IMG/VR virus record: IMGVR_UViG_3300008266_000015
Length of the DNA stretch: 64,000 nt
From: a virus
Strand: one strand, 5' to 3'
The notes below the pieces were generated by a model. The model had not been told where the DNA came from and did no database searches. It saw nothing but the letters and a program-made list of their open reading frames with translations. Both the position numbers and the translations under genes were made by a program. This document shows, in pieces, positions 20,785-27,733 of this stretch. Positions within the stretch are counted from its first letter, which is position 1, and each line of letters opens with the position of its first letter.

Positions 20785-21556
20785 GGTTCCATTGTGTTTA
20801 TTGGAACAAAGTTTACAATTCAACAATTACGATTACTGCTTGCCCCATTTAATGGATCAATATGAAGAATACAAGGACTTCTTTATGAGATCTAAAGAAA
20901 ATAAACGACACATTATGATGGACAATTCACTTCATGAATTAGGTATTCCTTATAGTGAAGATAGATTATTCTATTGGTTAGATGTTTTGCAACCTAATGA
21001 GTTTTTTGTACCTGATTTTTGGGAGGATCAAACACAATCAATTGTGTCTGCTAAGAGATGGATTCAATATCAAGAAAAATATCCTGATACAACATTTATA
21101 GCTGTAGTACAAGCAAAATCTATAAATGAAGCAATGATTTGTTATCAAATATACAAAGATTTAGGATATCAAAAAATAGCATTTAGTTATGGTGCTTCGT
21201 ACTATAATGAAGTACACCCACATGAGAACAAAGCAATAGGTAAAGCATTAGGTAGAATTGGAACTATAAGAAAAATGCGTGAATTAGGTATAATTCAAAA
21301 TAATGATAAAATTCATCTCCTTGGATGTTCAGTACCTCAAGAATTTGGATACCATAAAAATAGTTCATATATTGAATCAATTGATACCTCAAATCCAGTA
21401 ATGGCGGCTATTCAAGGATTAAAATATAGTACTTGGGGATTAAGTGAAAAACCAACAATAAACATGAATGAATGTTTTGAAATGCCATTAAGTGAAATTA
21501 ATATAGAATTAGTCAATTATAATGTTAAACAATTTAAACAAATAAACAGTCTATGA
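20768..21556 (+). CDS. TGT/DpdA-like guanine transglycosylase-fold protein (candidate 7-deazaguanine DNA insertase)
   Basis: MMDNS, PD, AVVQ, IHLLG, SIDTS motifs in TGT-barrel order; immediately upstream of queC/D/E/folE. Confidence 0.65.
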   Translation: MKISHEVPLCLLEQSLQFNNYDYCLPHLMDQYEEYKDFFMRSKENKRHIMMDNSLHELGIPYSEDRLFYWLDVLQPNEFFVPDFWEDQTQSIVSAKRWIQYQEKYPDTTFIAVVQAKSINEAMICYQIYKDLGYQKIAFSYGASYYNEVHPHENKAIGKALGRIGTIRKMRELGIIQNNDKIHLLGCSVPQEFGYHKNSSYIESIDTSNPVMAAIQGLKYSTWGLSEKPTINMNECFEMPLSEINIELVNYNVKQFKQINSL

Positions 21557-21810
21557 AACAAGAAGAATTCGTATCATTGTATGATTTTCTAGGAAAACCA
21601 GCAGGATCACAATTAGGAAAAGAAGTTTGGAATGTAGCTCAAGCTACCTCAGAACCAACAACAATTAAACAAGTTAGCAATCCAAAATATACTGGTAAAA
21701 TAGTAATGTATAGACCAGAATTTTTAAGGAAATATTTTAATGGTCTAACTAAAACTATTACCAATTATGAATTAACTAAAAACACTAATTATGAATCTCT
21801 CCCATTCTAA
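21553..21810 (+). CDS. Hypothetical protein
   Basis: 85-aa ORF overlapping both neighbours. Confidence 0.6.
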   Translation: MKQEEFVSLYDFLGKPAGSQLGKEVWNVAQATSEPTTIKQVSNPKYTGKIVMYRPEFLRKYFNGLTKTITNYELTKNTNYESLPF

Positions 21811-22741
21811 AAAACAAGCAGTCCTCTCATTAAGTGGAGGAATGGATAGTAGCACATTATTACTCCATTTATTAGCAAATGACTATGAGGTAACATGTTT
21901 AAGTTTTGACTATGGTCAAAAACATAAAGTTGAATTAGAGCGTGCTACTGATTTAGTACAATATATTAATCAATATTCTGAGTGGGAAGATTTAGGATAT
22001 TTTAGAAAAAATCTAAGTGAAGCTTTAAATACCACATCTGTTAAATATCCTAAAGTTAAACACCAAATTATTAAATTAGATGGTTTAGCACAGTTACTTA
22101 ATTCTTCATTAGTTGAAGGTGGAGCAGAGGTACCTGAAGGACATTATGCTGCTGAAAATATGAAAGAGACAGTAGTACCTAATCGTAATAAAATCTTTTC
22201 ATCAATTATTCAAGCAGTTGCATTATCAATTGCAGATAAAAAAAGTACTGAATGTTCTATTGCAATGGGGATCCATTCAGGTGATCATTCTATCTATCCT
22301 GATTGTAGACAAGATTTTAGAGATGCAGATTTTGATGCATTTATTATTGGAAATTGGGGAGCAGAAAATGTAAACGTTTATACACCTTATATGGATACTG
22401 ATAAATTTGGTATTTTACAAGATGGAGAAAAATGTTGCAAACAATTAGGTTTAGATTTTGATGAAGTATATAAACGTACTAACACAAGTTATAAGCCAAT
22501 TTATATTGAATATCCAATGGGATCTACTATGGAAGATATGAGAAATGGACCTGAAGGAACCTGGTACTCAGATTACAAATCAGCCTCTTCAGTAGAACGT
22601 ATTGAAGCATTTATTAAATTAGGTCGTCCTGATCCTGTGCTCTATGCTGATGAAACAGGTCCTGTAAGTTGGGAAACAGCTAGAATGTATGTAGAACAAG
22701 TAATATCAGAATACGCAAAAGAACAATTAAATATTAATTAA
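21791..22741 (+). CDS. queC: 7-cyano-7-deazaguanine synthase
   Basis: SLSGGMDS PP-loop, FDYGQKH, VPNRN, YPDCR. Confidence 0.9.
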   Translation: MNLSHSKKQAVLSLSGGMDSSTLLLHLLANDYEVTCLSFDYGQKHKVELERATDLVQYINQYSEWEDLGYFRKNLSEALNTTSVKYPKVKHQIIKLDGLAQLLNSSLVEGGAEVPEGHYAAENMKETVVPNRNKIFSSIIQAVALSIADKKSTECSIAMGIHSGDHSIYPDCRQDFRDADFDAFIIGNWGAENVNVYTPYMDTDKFGILQDGEKCCKQLGLDFDEVYKRTNTSYKPIYIEYPMGSTMEDMRNGPEGTWYSDYKSASSVERIEAFIKLGRPDPVLYADETGPVSWETARMYVEQVISEYAKEQLNIN

Positions 22742-22742
22742 A

Positions 22743-22994
22743 ATGAAACAAATTATCTATTTTAGCGCCGGATGGTGTACAGCATGTCAATCTATGAGTC
22801 CAATGGTTGATCAATTAAAACGAGAAAAAAATATTTCTGTAACAAAAATTGATACAGACTATGATGCGTCTTTTGTTGACAAGTACAATATTAGAAGTGT
22901 TCCAACTACTATTATTTTAGAAAATGATAATGAAGTTCGTCGCCACACCGGAGTATTAAGTTACCAACAATTAAACAATCTCATCAATGGGTAA
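22743..22994 (+). CDS. Thioredoxin
   Basis: WCTAC active site, IRSVPT cis-Pro motif. Confidence 0.9.
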   Translation: MKQIIYFSAGWCTACQSMSPMVDQLKREKNISVTKIDTDYDASFVDKYNIRSVPTTIILENDNEVRRHTGVLSYQQLNNLING

Positions 22995-23454
22995 ATTTCA
23001 ATCAACAAAATTATTTGATGGGTATTCAACAGTATTTCGTCAATGGAAAGCAGAAGGTACTCATTGTAAGTTCTTACATGGTTATGGAGTATCATTTAGA
23101 GTATGGTTTGAAGGTGAATTAGACGAACGCAATTGGGTATGGGACTTTGGAGGTATGAAACGTGCTAAAGGAACTATCGAAGGAATGAATCCTAAAGTGT
23201 GGATGGACCACATGTTTGATCATACTACAATTATAGCTGAGGATGATCCTCGTATTGAATTATTTAAAAAAATGGATAAAGAAGATCTTATTCAATTAAG
23301 AATTATACCAGCAACGGGAGCAGAACAATTTGCTAAATATATTTACGAAAAATTAAATACCTTTATTCAAGAGGAAACTGAAGGTAGAGTAAAAGTAACT
23401 CAAGTGGAATTCATGGAACACAGTAAAAATACAGCAATCTATAAAGAAAATTAA
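22987..23454 (+). CDS. queD: 6-carboxytetrahydropterin synthase
   Basis: HCKFLHGY, WVWDFG, FDHT, GAEQFA. Confidence 0.85.
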   Translation: MGKFQSTKLFDGYSTVFRQWKAEGTHCKFLHGYGVSFRVWFEGELDERNWVWDFGGMKRAKGTIEGMNPKVWMDHMFDHTTIIAEDDPRIELFKKMDKEDLIQLRIIPATGAEQFAKYIYEKLNTFIQEETEGRVKVTQVEFMEHSKNTAIYKEN

Positions 23455-23509
23455 TTATGTGGACATCAACTACAACATACGGAGATATAAAATTTAACTA
23501 TATTATAAA

Positions 23510-23560
23510 ATGAAAGACAAATTACTAATTAGTAGTGATTTCTATTCGATTAATCGATAA
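23510..23560 (+). pseudogene. queE: Orphaned original 5' end of queE
   Basis: MKDKLLISSDFYSINR*; LLISSDFY is identical to the N-terminus of queE at 24278. Confidence 0.8.
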
Positions 23561-23598
23561 AAAATGATATTCTATAATATTTATAATAAAGCAATATT

Positions 23599-24285
23599 AT
23601 GGAAAAACATTATGTTTATAAGATTACCAACTTAAAAAATAATAAAATATACATTGGTGTAAGAACCCATCCTAGTCCTGAATTAGATGAATATATGGGA
23701 AGCGGAACATGTATTCAAAATGTTATAAAAATTGAAGGTATTGAATATTTTAAAAAAGAAATTATTAAAACCTTTGATACAAGAGAAAAAGCAGAAAACT
23801 ATGAGTCTTCTTTATTAACAGAAGAATTTTGTAATAGTCCTGAAACATATAATATTCAAAGGACTAGTAATTTTAATGGAAAGATGCATGGTTTTAGAAA
23901 GGATATATGGTATGATTATTTTCAAGAAATTAGAGACAAATATACGAGTGGAGAAACATTGCCAAGTCTTGGAAAACAATATCATTGCGACAAAGGAACC
24001 ATCAGAATAATATGCTCAGATGTAAAAAGAACTAATTCTGAATCACAAAGGATAAGATTTGATAAATGTATAACATCAGGTGCTAGAGATTTAGAATTTG
24101 ATAAAGTTAATTTGGATATGTTATTAGATTTATATAATATTGAAAAATGGAGTGTAAATCGAATAGCTACTTATTTTAATAAAAGTTGCTCTTTTATAGA
24201 TAGAAGATTAAAAGAACATAATATAATAAAAAGAACAAGAAAAGAAAACAACGAAAAACCATTTAAACAAAGAAAAAATGACTAA
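23599..24285 (+). mobile_element. Free-standing GIY-YIG homing endonuclease inserted in the 5' end of queE
   Basis: YVYKITNLKNNKIYIG, YMGSG, E..YN; C-terminal HTH-like repeats; own ATATTTAT motif. Confidence 0.85.
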
Positions 24286-25105
24286 AAACACTCTCTTAAT
24301 ATCCTCAGATTTTTATACTTGTCAAGGCGAAGGTATAAGCACAGGTATTCCTTCATACTTCGTTCGTTTAGGAAACTGTAACTTAACATGCGGAATGTCA
24401 AGAGCATTCGCTAATAAACTTCTAAAAGAAGCATCATTAGAGGATGGGGAAATATTCAAAGGCGATTTAGAACTAGAAGGTAAAGCAACATGGACTTGTG
24501 ATAGTACATCTCAGTGGTTATGGAGAGGTGAAGAAAAAGACTTCCAATATCTAATTGATCAATGGAAAGAACAAGGCATCTATGAACATATTAAGAATGG
24601 TACTATCCATATTATTTGGACGGGTGGTGAACCTACAATTAAAGGACATCAAGAAGCTATTCGTAACTTTGCTAGATATTGGAGAGAATACGAAAGCACA
24701 TCAGTACTATTAGGTTTTAATGAAATAGAAACAAATGGTACTATTTACATTAAAGACGAACTGTGGTACACATTACACCAAATCAATTGTTCTCCTAAAT
24801 TATCTAATTCAGGAATGACTGAAAAACAACGTATTGTTCCTGCAGCCATTAAACGCATTATGGAGCACGATAACTATCAATTTAAGTTCGTTATTTCAAC
24901 TGAAGATGATGTTAAGGAAATATTCCATGACTTTATTGAGCCATTTAATATTCCACTTAAAAATATTGTTTGTATGCCAGGTTTAGATGATGTTGCTGAT
25001 TTTGAAGAACGTACTCGTTTTTGTTTAGAAATGGGAAAAAAATATATGTTTAGAGCCCTTACACGACTACATATAGCAGCCTGGAACAAAACGCTGAATG
25101 TGTAA
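24278..25105 (+). CDS. queE: 7-carboxy-7-deazaguanine synthase (radical SAM)
   Basis: FYTCQGEG, FVRLGNCNLTC...WTCDS, TGGEP, IETNGT, SPKL, KFV, RLH. Confidence 0.9.
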   Translation: MTKNTLLISSDFYTCQGEGISTGIPSYFVRLGNCNLTCGMSRAFANKLLKEASLEDGEIFKGDLELEGKATWTCDSTSQWLWRGEEKDFQYLIDQWKEQGIYEHIKNGTIHIIWTGGEPTIKGHQEAIRNFARYWREYESTSVLLGFNEIETNGTIYIKDELWYTLHQINCSPKLSNSGMTEKQRIVPAAIKRIMEHDNYQFKFVISTEDDVKEIFHDFIEPFNIPLKNIVCMPGLDDVADFEERTRFCLEMGKKYMFRALTRLHIAAWNKTLNV

Positions 25106-25185
25106 AACTTTTATAAATTCAAAAACTAGGATTTCAAGATTTTATTTTATATATTTAACTTAAATAAATTTAAACAACTAAGGTT

Positions 25186-25590
25186 ATGAAAAAATTAAAA
25201 ATTCACGCAAAATGGGCTTATTTACGTTACAAAAGCCGCATGAAGAATTCATATGGTGGAAAACGAGAACTAGATGCTAATGAACAACTAATCAAAAGTG
25301 TTGTAGTAAGGATTGCATCAAATCCAAAAAATTCTATTTTAGTATCTCCTATTTCAAACCACATTCATATTCAAACTGAGGACAAAAACTATGCAGTGAT
25401 TTTATCTGAAAATAGAGTTAAAATTGCTAATCACAAAATATTCATCGAAACATCACTTGATCCGTTTTTCTGTAAAATGTTATATAGTATTGCATTTAAA
25501 TATGTAGAAAAATATCGTCAAGCAGTAGATAAAACAACTAGTGAGAACGAAATAAACGGATTAAATTCTATTCTAAATCAATTAAATTAA
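25186..25590 (+). CDS. Hypothetical protein
   Basis: 134-aa ORF behind the promoter at 25127. Confidence 0.6.
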   Translation: MKKLKIHAKWAYLRYKSRMKNSYGGKRELDANEQLIKSVVVRIASNPKNSILVSPISNHIHIQTEDKNYAVILSENRVKIANHKIFIETSLDPFFCKMLYSIAFKYVEKYRQAVDKTTSENEINGLNSILNQLN

Positions 25591-25591
25591 A

Positions 25592-26209
25592 ATGAAATAT
25601 ATTCAAAAAGCAAACGAAAATACTCCTCGCACACCAGAGGAGATCGAAAAAATGATTACAGAAGCATCTGTACATTATGGTGCATTTTTAAAATCAATGG
25701 GATTTGATCATACTGCTGATCCACAAACTATTGATACACCTCGTCGTGTAGCTAAAGCATGGTTAAAAGATCTAGTACTAGGTTCAATTACTGAAGAACC
25801 ATCAATGACTGTATTCCCTAATGAGGAAAACTATGATGGAGTAGTAATTCAAACAGGTATTCCAGTTATTAGTATGTGTGCACATCACAATCTTCCATTT
25901 ACAGGATATGCATCTGTTGCATATGTACCTGGAGAAAAAATTGTTGGTTTAAGTAAATTAAACCGTGTAGTAGATTGGTTTGCTCGTCGTCCACAAATGC
26001 AAGAATCATTAACACAACAAATTCATGGTTTTTTAGCTAATAAATTGGATTGCAAATCAGTAGCAGTTAGTATTGCCTCTAAACATATGTGTTGTTCAAA
26101 TCGTGGTATTAAACATCCTACCTCTACAATGTGTACTAACAAATTTAGTGGTGTATTTATGGAGCCTGGGAATCTAATTCGTGAAGAATTTGGTCCGGAG
26201 TTTAATTAA
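25592..26209 (+). CDS. folE: GTP cyclohydrolase I
   Basis: TPRRVAK, SMCAHHNLPF, GLSKLNR, RRPQMQE, HMCCSNRG. Confidence 0.93.
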   Translation: MKYIQKANENTPRTPEEIEKMITEASVHYGAFLKSMGFDHTADPQTIDTPRRVAKAWLKDLVLGSITEEPSMTVFPNEENYDGVVIQTGIPVISMCAHHNLPFTGYASVAYVPGEKIVGLSKLNRVVDWFARRPQMQESLTQQIHGFLANKLDCKSVAVSIASKHMCCSNRGIKHPTSTMCTNKFSGVFMEPGNLIREEFGPEFN

Positions 26210-26217
26210 GATAAAAA

Positions 26218-26241
26218 AGGCTATAACGAAAGTTATAGCCT
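26218..26241. terminator. Hairpin after folE (probable terminator)
   Basis: AGGCTATAAC-gaaa-GTTATAGCCT perfect 10-bp stem, A-tract upstream, T-rich downstream. Confidence 0.7.
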
Positions 26242-26287
26242 ATCTATATTTTTACAATATTTATTATCGCCAAACAAAAATATTGCG

Positions 26288-26959
26288 ATGATAAATACTA
26301 CAAAAATATACCTAGTAACTAATTGTTATGGAAATTCTAATAAAGTTTATATAGGTAAAACTAAAAATTCTCGAGAAGCTGACCATAAACGATCCTTTGG
26401 CTCTCATATAATATATACTTATATTGATGAAATAAATTCTTTAGATCATAAAGATTGGGAGCCATTAGAAACATATTGGATAGAACAGTTTAAACAATGG
26501 GGGTTTGAAGTATTAAATGAAAATAAGGGTGGAGGAGGTCCTATAACTCATTCTGAAATGGTAAGAGATAAAATGAAAGGGCCTAAACCTTATTTATTTA
26601 AATCTATACTTCAATATAGTTTAGAAGGAAATTTTATTAAAGAATGGTTAAGTATTAATGAAGCAGCTTTGTTTCTTAATAAAAAATCAGGAGCAGCCAT
26701 AATAGAAAATTGTTCTCAAAAAAGAAAATCAGCTTATGGATTTATATGGAGATATAAAGAAAATCCTTTAGAAAAAAACTTCATATATAAAAAAGATAAA
26801 TACACTAAACCTGTTCTACAATATGATTTGCAAATGAATTTTATTAAGGAATGGCCAAGTCTATCTGAAGCTAAAAAATATACAATTGGAGATATCCAGG
26901 CATGTTGTAGTGGAAAACAGCAGACAGCAGGAAAATATATTTGGAGATTTAAAAATTAA
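26288..26959 (+). mobile_element. GIY-YIG homing endonuclease with two NUMOD1-type repeats
   Basis: KIYLVTN..KVYIGKT, E..WI, NENKGGGG; repeated ILQYSLEGNFIKEW.S..EA / VLQYDLQMNFIKEW.S..EA ... A.G.IWR. Confidence 0.85.
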
Positions 26960-27017
26960 ATTGGGATTACAAAATTTTCTTTTTATATTTAGATTAAATA
27001 AAAGGTTATAATTAATT

Positions 27018-27215
27018 ATGAAATACAGATTAGGTTTTTTGTTTCACAGAATTATATACGATAATTGGTCGTGGGAGTGTACTATCTTACCATCACTACG
27101 CGTTGAACGAAATAAGTATAGCTTTATTTCTACTGGTGTACACGGAGACTGGTGGGCACTATATATAAACTTTCTATTTTGGGACTTTGGAATAAAAATA
27201 TATCAAGATTATTAA
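27018..27215 (+). CDS. Small aromatic-rich protein (paralog of 27735)
   Basis: Shares CT.LPS, FI.TGV.G, FLFW.FGI..YQDY with 27735. Confidence 0.65.
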   Translation: MKYRLGFLFHRIIYDNWSWECTILPSLRVERNKYSFISTGVHGDWWALYINFLFWDFGIKIYQDY

Positions 27216-27216
27216 T

Positions 27217-27483
27217 ATGAAAAAAATACTAACAGTAATAGGTTTGCTTGCATTACTAACTTCATGCCAATATGATAGGGGTGATATACCACATCCACCT
27301 ACAGATTTTATAGAAATCCACGGCAAGGTATATAAGATAATGTCTATTGTACCTTGTGATGGATGTAGCAGCATGTGGATTATGTATCCCAAAGATAGCC
27401 TCGACAGTCAACCTCAGGTTATAAAATACGATGTAAAACAAGGTAAACAAACAATAAATCAAACAGTAATTAAAGTAGACTAA
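27217..27483 (+). CDS. Lipoprotein
   Basis: MKK + hydrophobic core + lipobox LTSC; internal CDGC. Confidence 0.7.
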   Translation: MKKILTVIGLLALLTSCQYDRGDIPHPPTDFIEIHGKVYKIMSIVPCDGCSSMWIMYPKDSLDSQPQVIKYDVKQGKQTINQTVIKVD

Positions 27484-27484
27484 T

Positions 27485-27733
27485 ATGGGAAAAATAATTT
27501 TAGAATTTGATGCGCTTGAAGACGCACAAGATGCAAGAACAGCATTAGATGGTTGGAAGTGGAAAATGGCTATGTGGGATTTAGATCAATTACTACGTAG
27601 TACAACCAAACATGGAGTTAGTTTACTTGATCCCAAAAAGGAAGCCTCAAGTGAGGAAATAGAAGTGGCTTATAAAATTCGTGATGAAATACGAGAAATG
27701 CTTACTAGCTCAGGTTTAAACTTAGAAGACTAA
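27485..27733 (+). CDS. Hypothetical protein
   Basis: 82-aa ORF tightly packed in the operon. Confidence 0.6.
   Translation: MGKIILEFDALEDAQDARTALDGWKWKMAMWDLDQLLRSTTKHGVSLLDPKKEASSEEIEVAYKIRDEIREMLTSSGLNLED

Follow-up and report, generated by a model that had tools for sequence, protein, structure and literature searches.

A homing endonuclease cassette within a phage queE gene probably carries a substitute gene start and leaves the old start behind as a stub

INTRODUCTION

How can a selfish endonuclease gene occupy a protein-coding gene without destroying it? Selfish endonuclease genes spare their hosts by sitting between genes, by residing in introns or inteins, by leaving the host gene in two working parts, or by ribosome hopping, as in T4 gene 60. 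The question is raised again by IMG/VR virus record IMGVR_UViG_3300008266_000015, a stretch of 64,000 nucleotides that was analyzed here and is termed the window, in which a GIY-YIG homing endonuclease gene (HEG) lies between a short copy of the start of queE and a complete queE gene. This layout of a stub, a GIY-YIG gene, and a queE restart overlapping the endonuclease stop had been proposed in a first-pass annotation of the sequence and is confirmed here. We consider it highly likely that an endonuclease cassette inside queE brings with it a substitute gene start and that the old start has been left behind as a dead stub. Relatives of this locus are denoted by L-numbers and are loci or contigs mostly from IMG/VR; L129 is an ENA contig.

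RESULTS

An endonuclease gene lies between a queE stub and an intact queE gene

The stub begins with 13 queE-derived codons (23510 to 23548; MKDKLLISSDFYS), which are followed by three element-encoded codons (INR) and a stop. Beyond the endonuclease gene, queE starts anew at an ATG within the last endonuclease codons (ATGACTAA), with an 8-nt overlap with the endonuclease stop. The residues LLISSDFY are encoded twice, as TTA CTA ATT AGT AGT GAT TTC TAT in the stub and as CTC TTA ATA TCC TCA GAT TTT TAT in queE, with six of the eight codons differing. The same arrangement of stub, endonuclease gene, and queE was present in assemblies of at least five independent samples (98.8 to 99.96% identity), which rules out an assembly artefact as its source. 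The features of the locus are as follows.

23510..23560, + strand: relic queE 5' stub open reading frame (ORF), with ATG at 23510 and TAA at 23558-23560, reading MKDKLLISSDFYSINR and then stop
23546..23557, no strand: left junction of the cassette, a 12-nt perfect palindrome, TCGATTAATCGA, straddling the join TCG/ATTAATCGA
23577..23587, + strand: promoter-like motif ATATTTATAAT, 12 nt 5' of the endonuclease ATG
23599..24285, + strand: free-standing GIY-YIG homing endonuclease gene, SegE-like, short form, 228 aa
24250..24336, + strand: putative replacement module, comprising the endonuclease tail and queE codons 1-20, ~95% identical to L010 (sliding-window identity and alignment)
24278..25105, + strand: intact queE, 7-carboxy-7-deazaguanine synthase family, 275 aa, starting MTKNTLLISSDFYTCQGEG
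24278..24622, + strand: exchange tract relative to the near-isogenic HEG-free contig L129, 57 mismatches
24311..24322, + strand: variant presumed target codons, FYTC (HEG-free consensus, FYSV)

The stub resembles the start of an uninterrupted queE gene and decays in relatives

In the HEG-free locus L001, queD is followed by 58 nt and then by queE. In L001 and in L049, which is also HEG-free, the stub sequence is contiguous with queE and both genes start MKDKLLISSDFYSVQGEG, in line with the earlier prediction that relatives lacking the endonuclease would read through contiguously. Aligned with L001, the window is 88% identical at the nucleotide level over 22900 to 23547 (queD, spacer, and stub), with 93 to 97% identity in the final 150 nt before 23547, and the alignment resumes at 24308. 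By direct reading, 37 of 39 stub bases are identical to the L001 queE start, and about half match the window's own replacement start. Neither a stub nor a second queE start was seen among ~50 HEG-free relatives; the same duplication at a locus lacking the endonuclease had been named beforehand as evidence against the proposal. The collinearity with the queD-queE region of L001, together with homologous stubs at other endonuclease loci, argues that the duplication of the queE start is not due to chance.

A homologue of the endonuclease (51 to 98% amino acid identity) is found directly 5' of queE at 13 metagenomic loci. The left junction, common to all 13, reads TTCTAT TCG/ATTAATCGA or TTCTAT TGA/ATTAATCGAG (the slash marks the join) and is followed in every case by ATATTTAT[AT]ATAAA and then the endonuclease ATG; no such junction signature was seen in HEG-free loci. 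At 13/13 loci, queE begins -20 to +4 nt from the endonuclease stop, in overlap with it or abutting it. The palindrome at the join occurs once in the window, is kept at all loci with this endonuclease family, and is absent from HEG-free loci; it could be an operator or a repair scar. The stub is complete in the window, L026/L070, L079, and L082, carries an internal deletion and a frameshift in L007/L078, and is reduced to ~15 nt or less in L010/L073, L029, L076, L080, L071/72, L074, L075, and L077. This pattern fits neutral decay, as would be expected if the stub were an unselected relic of a single old insertion that later spread. The first-pass annotation had spoken of a split queE gene; the insertion after codon 13 is borne out, but there are no two working parts, the stub being a relic.

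The replacement start appears to be a foreign queE allele

The 3' end of the cassette is best read as a complete, foreign, and divergent queE start (MTKNTLLISSDFYTC...) in frame with the rest of queE, and the cassette would be harmless because this end carries a complete substitute. The replacement start had been described as synonymously recoded. Six of the eight codons do differ, but any two HEG-free relatives also differ at ~six of the eight LLISSDFY codons because synonymous sites are near saturation (dS about 1), and the replacement start contains non-synonymous changes as well (S to T and V to C). The apparent recoding is thus most simply understood as ordinary divergence of a foreign allele.

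The restored protein has the N-terminal FY[ST]xQGEG motif of the QueE family, its N-terminus aligns with the solved QueE structures 4NJG (FYTLQGEG, Burkholderia) and 6NHL, and queC, queD, and folE are its neighbours. It matches PHROG 2076 (E 2e-39). QueE proteins 63 to 87% identical to it are encoded at 69 IMG/VR loci, and more than 4,000 homologues of the same length are present in the protein collection. Its matches to the NCBIfam QueE models lie below the equivalog cut-offs and a Pfam scan of the queE product gave no match, which places the protein in a divergent viral QueE clade. The nearest cultured-phage QueE proteins are only ~33% identical, and megablast found nothing that matched the region among 50,697 phage records. 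The positions that change from FYSV to FYTC are tolerant in QueE, as the solved Burkholderia enzyme has FYTLQGEG. The queE homologues of L064 and L065 (4001 to ~4770) lack ~30 residues (query ~133-166) relative to the window protein.

The cassette lies in a mosaic of exchanged tracts

Between carriers, the endonuclease gene is more alike than queE. The window and L026 are 99% identical in the endonuclease gene and 75% identical in the queE body; over 23513-24273 they share 97.6% of nucleotides, against 85% in the adjoining queD, and the endonuclease body is 97 to 100% identical in surroundings that are otherwise 75 to 86% identical. Endonuclease and queE identities are 96 versus 81% for L080/L029, 88 versus 77% for L076/L078, 86 versus 77% for L076/L079, and 84 versus 74% for the window and L071.

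Two HEG-free loci show the presence/absence polymorphism directly. In L129, queE starts MSAINPNKLLISSDFYSVQGEG. The window matches L129 from 24623 with no further mismatch within queE, and from 24678 to ~28878 the two differ by one substitution and one 21-nt indel. The sample that gave L129 also gave L133, which carries the queD, stub, and junction of the window, so carrier and non-carrier variants coexist. L016, with the gene order queD, orf106, queE, is 96.8% identical to L026 until the first few codons of the L026 stub; the two diverge across the remaining stub and the endonuclease gene and throughout queE (78%) and are 96.7% identical again downstream. The left crossover in this pair lies inside queE 5' homology, as expected if the stub acts as a left homology arm. 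Assignment of a single donor for the L026 stub failed, as this stub is itself mosaic.

The window is likewise mosaic. It is L001-like to 23547, L026-like (97 to 100%) from 23548 to ~24250, L010-like (~95%) over ~24250-24336, and L001-like again from ~24369 to ~24500, before the match to L129 begins at 24623. Over the endonuclease tail and queE codons 1-20, the window and L010 are ~95% identical, compared with ~77% elsewhere. These values indicate that the divergent queE 5' end travels with the endonuclease and support the earlier proposal that the element carries its own queE start. The stub and the queE sequence just past the converted start are both L001-like; because of this, the cassette most likely homed into an L001-like queE, and the whole block would later have recombined into an L129-like backbone. 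We also considered whether the stub could be the earlier queE 5' end of the L129-like backbone itself and rejected this, as the stub, queD, and queE from 24369 to ~24500 are L001-like.

The 5' end of queE is a recurrent landing site

Among 49 distinct HEG-free alleles, 38 have DFYSV, and the V to C change occurs in none. Carrier alleles read FYTC, FFSC, FYSC, FFSV, or FYSI; 11 of the 12 alleles adjoining an endonuclease gene differ from FYSV, compared with at most 11/49 HEG-free alleles (Fisher P value, 1.6e-5, uncorrected for ancestry). These changes probably make carriers immune to cutting. The queE genes of the HEG-free loci L008 and L020 (at ~4001) have 5' ends very like those of long-form cassettes, and their alleles may be resistant ones that persist where the endonuclease was lost or where conversion brought none in.

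At L029 (1440-1500)/L030, L076 (~2283), and L080 (~2279), a second layer of complete stubs ends at FYSVQ(G), 7 to 9 nt past the first junction. These stubs lie ~600 nt 5' of the short remnant that belongs to the endonuclease itself, are separated from it by one or two small ORFs without assigned function, and look like nested insertions at the same site. In L050 (2203-3010)/L051, the same queE position is occupied by an unrelated I-TevI-like GIY-YIG gene with NUMOD1/NUMOD3. Its stub, MKDKLLISSDFY followed by a stop, is identical to L001 at 36/36 nt, and its junction, TTCTATTGAATTA, is similar to the one seen with the SegE-like family; the endonuclease could have been exchanged inside the cassette, or the site could have been invaded independently. 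L085 (2998-4589) encodes a 270-aa protein related to the endonuclease (37% identity), and its gene shares an ATGA overlap with the start of a queE gene from another QueE clade (MSKLKRIEDYNKILPIVEVYSAVQSEG...), which extends the association of this endonuclease family with queE beyond the queE family of the window. Collectively, these loci suggest that the queE 5' end is a recurrent landing site, and the junction ends likely bracket TCN GTN CAA GG as the cut region. I-TevI prefers to cleave at CNNNG; a cut at CAAG/G would fit this preference, which we take only as a lead.

The endonuclease is SegE-like, under purifying selection, and probably active

The endonuclease was detected by the Pfam profile PF19835 (SegE_GIY-YIG; 31.1 bits, cut-off 25) and by PHROG 314, "homing endonuclease" (E 5e-26), with PF01541 slightly under its cut-off (20.4 bits, cut-off 22.6). 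An AF2 model built from 14 homologues had a pLDDT of 79 overall and 87 to 94 in the N-domain. In Foldseek, the N-domain matched the I-TevI structures 1LN0/1MK0 with probability 1.00 (TM 0.62 to 0.67 by target; rmsd, 3.2 to 4.5 Å), the full-length E-value against I-TevI structures being only 0.04. A Protein Data Bank (PDB) sequence search with the endonuclease profile returned only a weak tandem helix-turn-helix (HTH) match, 2LVS (E 0.013), so the fold comparison was needed to see the likeness to I-TevI. In the 14 homologues, Y5, Y18, G20, R22, and N85 do not vary, and E75 hardly does; these residues probably correspond, one by one, to the catalytic Tyr/Arg/Glu/Asn of I-TevI. With its profile-detected domain, I-TevI fold, conserved residues, and presence/absence polymorphism with flank exchange, the gene conforms to the free-standing Seg-like GIY-YIG type.

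Beyond the N-domain lie tandem HTH-like modules. The short class (227 to 229 aa; window, L010, L071, L074, and L077) comprises the catalytic domain and, in the window, two such modules, and the long class (280 to 316 aa) has an extra C-terminal one, present in L026, L007, and L029; each of the two classes is conserved. The endonuclease gene is under purifying selection, with a dN/dS of 0.12 to 0.35 in all comparisons, and the short form is kept in five lineages at 70 to 85% amino acid identity (dN/dS, 0.13 to 0.23). Together with the GIY-YIG fold and the conserved residues, this suggests that the endonuclease is probably active.

Candidate expression signals flank the endonuclease gene

The motif ATATTTATAAT is kept 5' of all homologous endonuclease genes and is probably a phage promoter element. 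Five exact copies occur in the window, all on the coding strand and shortly 5' of ATGs. Allowing one mismatch, 27 copies were found against 19.7 expected in shuffles, which is no clear enrichment; what is suggestive is solely where the exact copies lie. A scan for sigma-70 promoters and terminators gave fewer promoter-like sites than shuffled controls and no terminator, and is uninformative for a phage without Shine-Dalgarno sequences: a Shine-Dalgarno-like motif precedes a single one of the 62 ORFs with 120 aa or more, and starts are preceded by A-rich leaders. Since such leaders are general in this phage, the A-rich stretch that precedes the new queE ATG is a usual start context, and queE translation could, but need not, be coupled to the endonuclease. 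The start context AAGTTATG is common in the window.

The locus lies in a 7-deazaguanine gene cluster

The window is AT-rich uncultured phage DNA (30.6% GC) with nearly all genes on the + strand, and a 7-deazaguanine (preQ0) gene cluster surrounds the stub, endonuclease gene, and queE, according to the ORF list, Pfam, NCBIfam, and PHROG. The neighbouring genes are as follows.

starts 20768: 262-aa ORF, PHROG 19058; Pfam gave no match
21791-22741: queC, in the preQ0 cluster
22743-22994: thioredoxin, between queC and queD
22987..23454, + strand: queD, 6-pyruvoyl-tetrahydropterin synthase family, left neighbour of the stub; Pfam PF01242 (E 2e-15); L001-like
between queE and folE: 134-aa ORF
25592-26209: folE, 3' of the 134-aa ORF
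26288-26959: second free-standing endonuclease gene, 3' of folE; 223 aa, NUMOD1 domain, GIY-YIG-like N-terminus

Among relatives, the gene neighbouring queE on its 5' side is hypervariable. One small protein with the motif SLYD[YF]LG.xAG..LGK and no family match shifts position within the cluster among loci: in the window, it is encoded between the 262-aa ORF and queC (21553-21810), in L129 (3-647) and L064 it is seemingly fused to queD, and in L002, L004, L017-L019, L021, L054, L055, and L062 its gene lies directly 5' of queE. The folE gene of the window lacks 21 nt (7 residues, LHAIAKN) near the C-terminus (~26190) relative to L129 and L131/L135, which are otherwise nearly identical. A mismatch cluster between the window and L129 near the second endonuclease gene was considered as another conversion tract and rejected, as it is this single 21-nt in-frame folE indel. 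The second endonuclease gene is also present in L129, which lacks the first, and is preceded by a one-mismatch copy of ATATTTATAAT (26257-26267).

DISCUSSION

A cassette that would replace the start of the gene it enters

In the scheme that we favour, a free-standing GIY-YIG gene with its own promoter-like motif lies inside queE after codon 13, at the Phe-Tyr-Ser of the conserved substrate-binding FY[ST]xQGEG motif. The enzyme would cut HEG-free queE at or near TCN GTN CAA GG, and the break would be repaired from a cassette-bearing genome, with queE past the cut as the right arm and the stub or shared upstream DNA as the left arm. This repair would copy in the endonuclease gene together with the substitute start and queE sequence of variable length. 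Changes at the cut region of the substitute start (FYTC, FFSV, FFSC, FYSC, and FYSI) would probably confer immunity, and recombination between stub and start that deletes the cassette would be unlikely because the two repeats diverge.

Several observations weigh against this scheme. L082 is the sole carrier in which the endonuclease lies beside a consensus FYSV allele, and some HEG-free alleles (L008 and L020) have FFSV, so the site changes are neither necessary nor sufficient markers of the cassette; their association with carriers comes, moreover, from a test without phylogenetic correction. The short form of the endonuclease lacks the third HTH-like module of the long form, and its specificity or activity could differ. 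The stub is L001-like, not L129-like, and 5' of queE neither the queD allele nor the gene order of the window is that of L129; because of these upstream differences, the window need not stem from an L129-like genome by one simple homing event.

The absent module is also what would speak for a fossil, that is, a cassette that arrived as described and whose short-form endonuclease is now inactive, retargeted, or domesticated and kept by linkage. Most stubs in relatives are old and decayed, as such a fossil would have them. We nevertheless consider this improbable, given the constraint on the short form in five lineages, and since the near identity of the endonuclease body to that of L026 and the near-isogenic HEG-free variant from the same sample indicate recent movement. 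Less probable still is an ordinary intergenic endonuclease with its target elsewhere, the stub having arisen by unrelated illegitimate recombination during a swap of phage gene blocks. The hypervariable gene 5' of queE does point to frequent recombination there, and T4-type endonucleases can cut far from their own genes (PMC2988022), but an incidental origin would have to account for an identical junction at 13/13 loci, a second stub layer a few nucleotides further on, an unrelated I-TevI-like endonuclease at the same codon with its own stub, and amino acid variants of carriers that cluster in exactly these codons.

We give practically no weight to a stub joined to the downstream queE by a group I intron, other splicing, or ribosomal bypass, in which case the internal ATG would not be the true start. 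GIY-YIG endonucleases are often intron encoded, and the endonuclease has a weak match to an NCBIfam "group I intron endonuclease" model (20.8 bits, cut-off 56). A search of 22000-27500 against Rfam at E <= 1, however, found no intron or other relevant RNA (a chance MicC match lay elsewhere), and the downstream ORF begins at an ATG of its own and encodes an entire N-terminus, which can be aligned with solved QueE proteins and with thousands of homologues. Joining would also duplicate LLISSDFY. Since the stub is frameshifted or deleted in relatives in which queE stays intact, splicing seems neither needed nor plausible, which upholds the first-pass view that no intron has to be invoked.

More tentatively, the stub may be more than debris. 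A cassette flanked on both sides by queE could form a portable homing unit able to spread among phages with unrelated genes 5' of queE; we regard this extension of the favoured scheme as possible but rather doubtful. Repeated one-sided repair would then stack stubs that record the cut, the first layer ending TCG/ and the second CAAG/G, which is I-TevI-like (CNNNG). I-TevI represses its own promoter, and the palindrome TCGATTAATCGA, which is half target sequence, might by analogy serve as an operator through which the HTH endonuclease represses its own promoter.

If the favoured scheme holds, the queE locus presents another solution in a phage to the problem of sparing the host gene, replacement of the gene start, a trick known mainly from fungal mitochondria. 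The case is replicated naturally in 13 related loci and in two pairs of a carrier and a non-carrier, as well as by stubs in layers and by the unrelated endonuclease that occupies the same codon. Its value lies mainly in the record that it gives of intron-free homing into an ORF, replicated in nature to an unusual degree. It also gives an uncharacterized SegE-like enzyme with tandem HTH modules a predicted target, the FYSVQGEG codons of queE, along with candidate immune alleles. Endonuclease-associated recombination appears to shuffle a 7-deazaguanine DNA modification module among freshwater phages, and this module shuffling fits the observation that nuclease genes mark genetic-exchange boundaries (PMC10448857). 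For annotation, a short ORF whose sequence recurs at the start of the gene after next should be taken as a homing scar, and the true queE start is to be placed inside the last endonuclease codons.

Comparison with known systems

In the literature, of which our coverage was incomplete, we found no paper on phage 5'-end replacement with a relic stub or on an endonuclease in queE. Among T4 free-standing endonucleases (SegB, SegE, SegF, SegG, and MobE; PMC2988022), the likeness extends to a GIY-YIG (SegE-like) enzyme with its own promoter, here predicted, to presence/absence polymorphism among related phages, and to co-conversion of flanking markers, as in T4 intronless homing (PMC2988022). Seg and Mob genes normally lie between genes, whereas the junction here is inside the target ORF and the transferred unit includes a substitute gene start. 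One-sided, microhomology-mediated repair is described for T4 intron homing when one flank is without homology (Parker et al. 1999, as reported in PMC2988022).

In Aeromonas phage Aeh1, nrdA is split by mobE into genes-in-pieces (Friedrich et al. 2007; PMC3045599). There, as here, an endonuclease gene sits in a conserved phage metabolic gene whose function is retained; both nrdA pieces are needed and assemble as proteins, however, whereas the 13-codon stub appears dispensable and decays in relatives. The MobA element of T4-like phages combines mobA with the gene 60 bypass cassette in a topoisomerase gene (Bonocora et al. 2011, as described in bioRxiv 10.1101/2022.08.31.505936). Both systems have a free-standing endonuclease in a conserved ORF, a downstream ORF that starts in overlap with the endonuclease ORF, a homologous but divergent copy of the target with the cut site (homR in MobA, 67 to 81% identity), and an occasional swap of endonuclease family, here perhaps in L050. 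With MobA, though, the split gene yields two functional polypeptides with added tails, a translational bypass of 50 nt is required, and the parental copy is deleted; at queE, a single full-length protein is restored, no recoding is involved, and the stub remains. The queE locus is set apart from genes-in-pieces of either kind (mobE/nrdA and mobA/gene 39-60), as the stub residues are duplicated in the full-length ORF and the stub is frameshifted or deleted in relatives.

The closest parallel is found in the fungal mitochondrial mORFs that replace a gene end, as in Allomyces macrogynus atp6 (Paquin et al. 1994, as cited in PMC3630166) and in Glomus atp6, atp9, cox2, and nad3, where the atp9 endonuclease is of the GIY-YIG type (PMC3630166). 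In both settings, an endonuclease gene lies inside a protein-coding gene, a foreign, divergent duplicate end keeps the ORF whole, and what remains of the native end is a relic that resembles relatives more than it does the duplicate (PMC3630166); the replacement start would simply be a foreign allele, as in Allomyces atp6. The queE cassette is a mirror image of these elements in that the 5' end is replaced rather than the 3' end or C-terminus. The endonuclease is free-standing 5' of the restored gene and not fused in frame, the host is a bacteriophage, and the relic keeps its native start signals and can make only a 16-residue peptide. The queE cassette has the features of gene-end replacement of the mORF type, at a 5' end, and is best regarded as an analogue of the mORFs and not as a member of the same element family.

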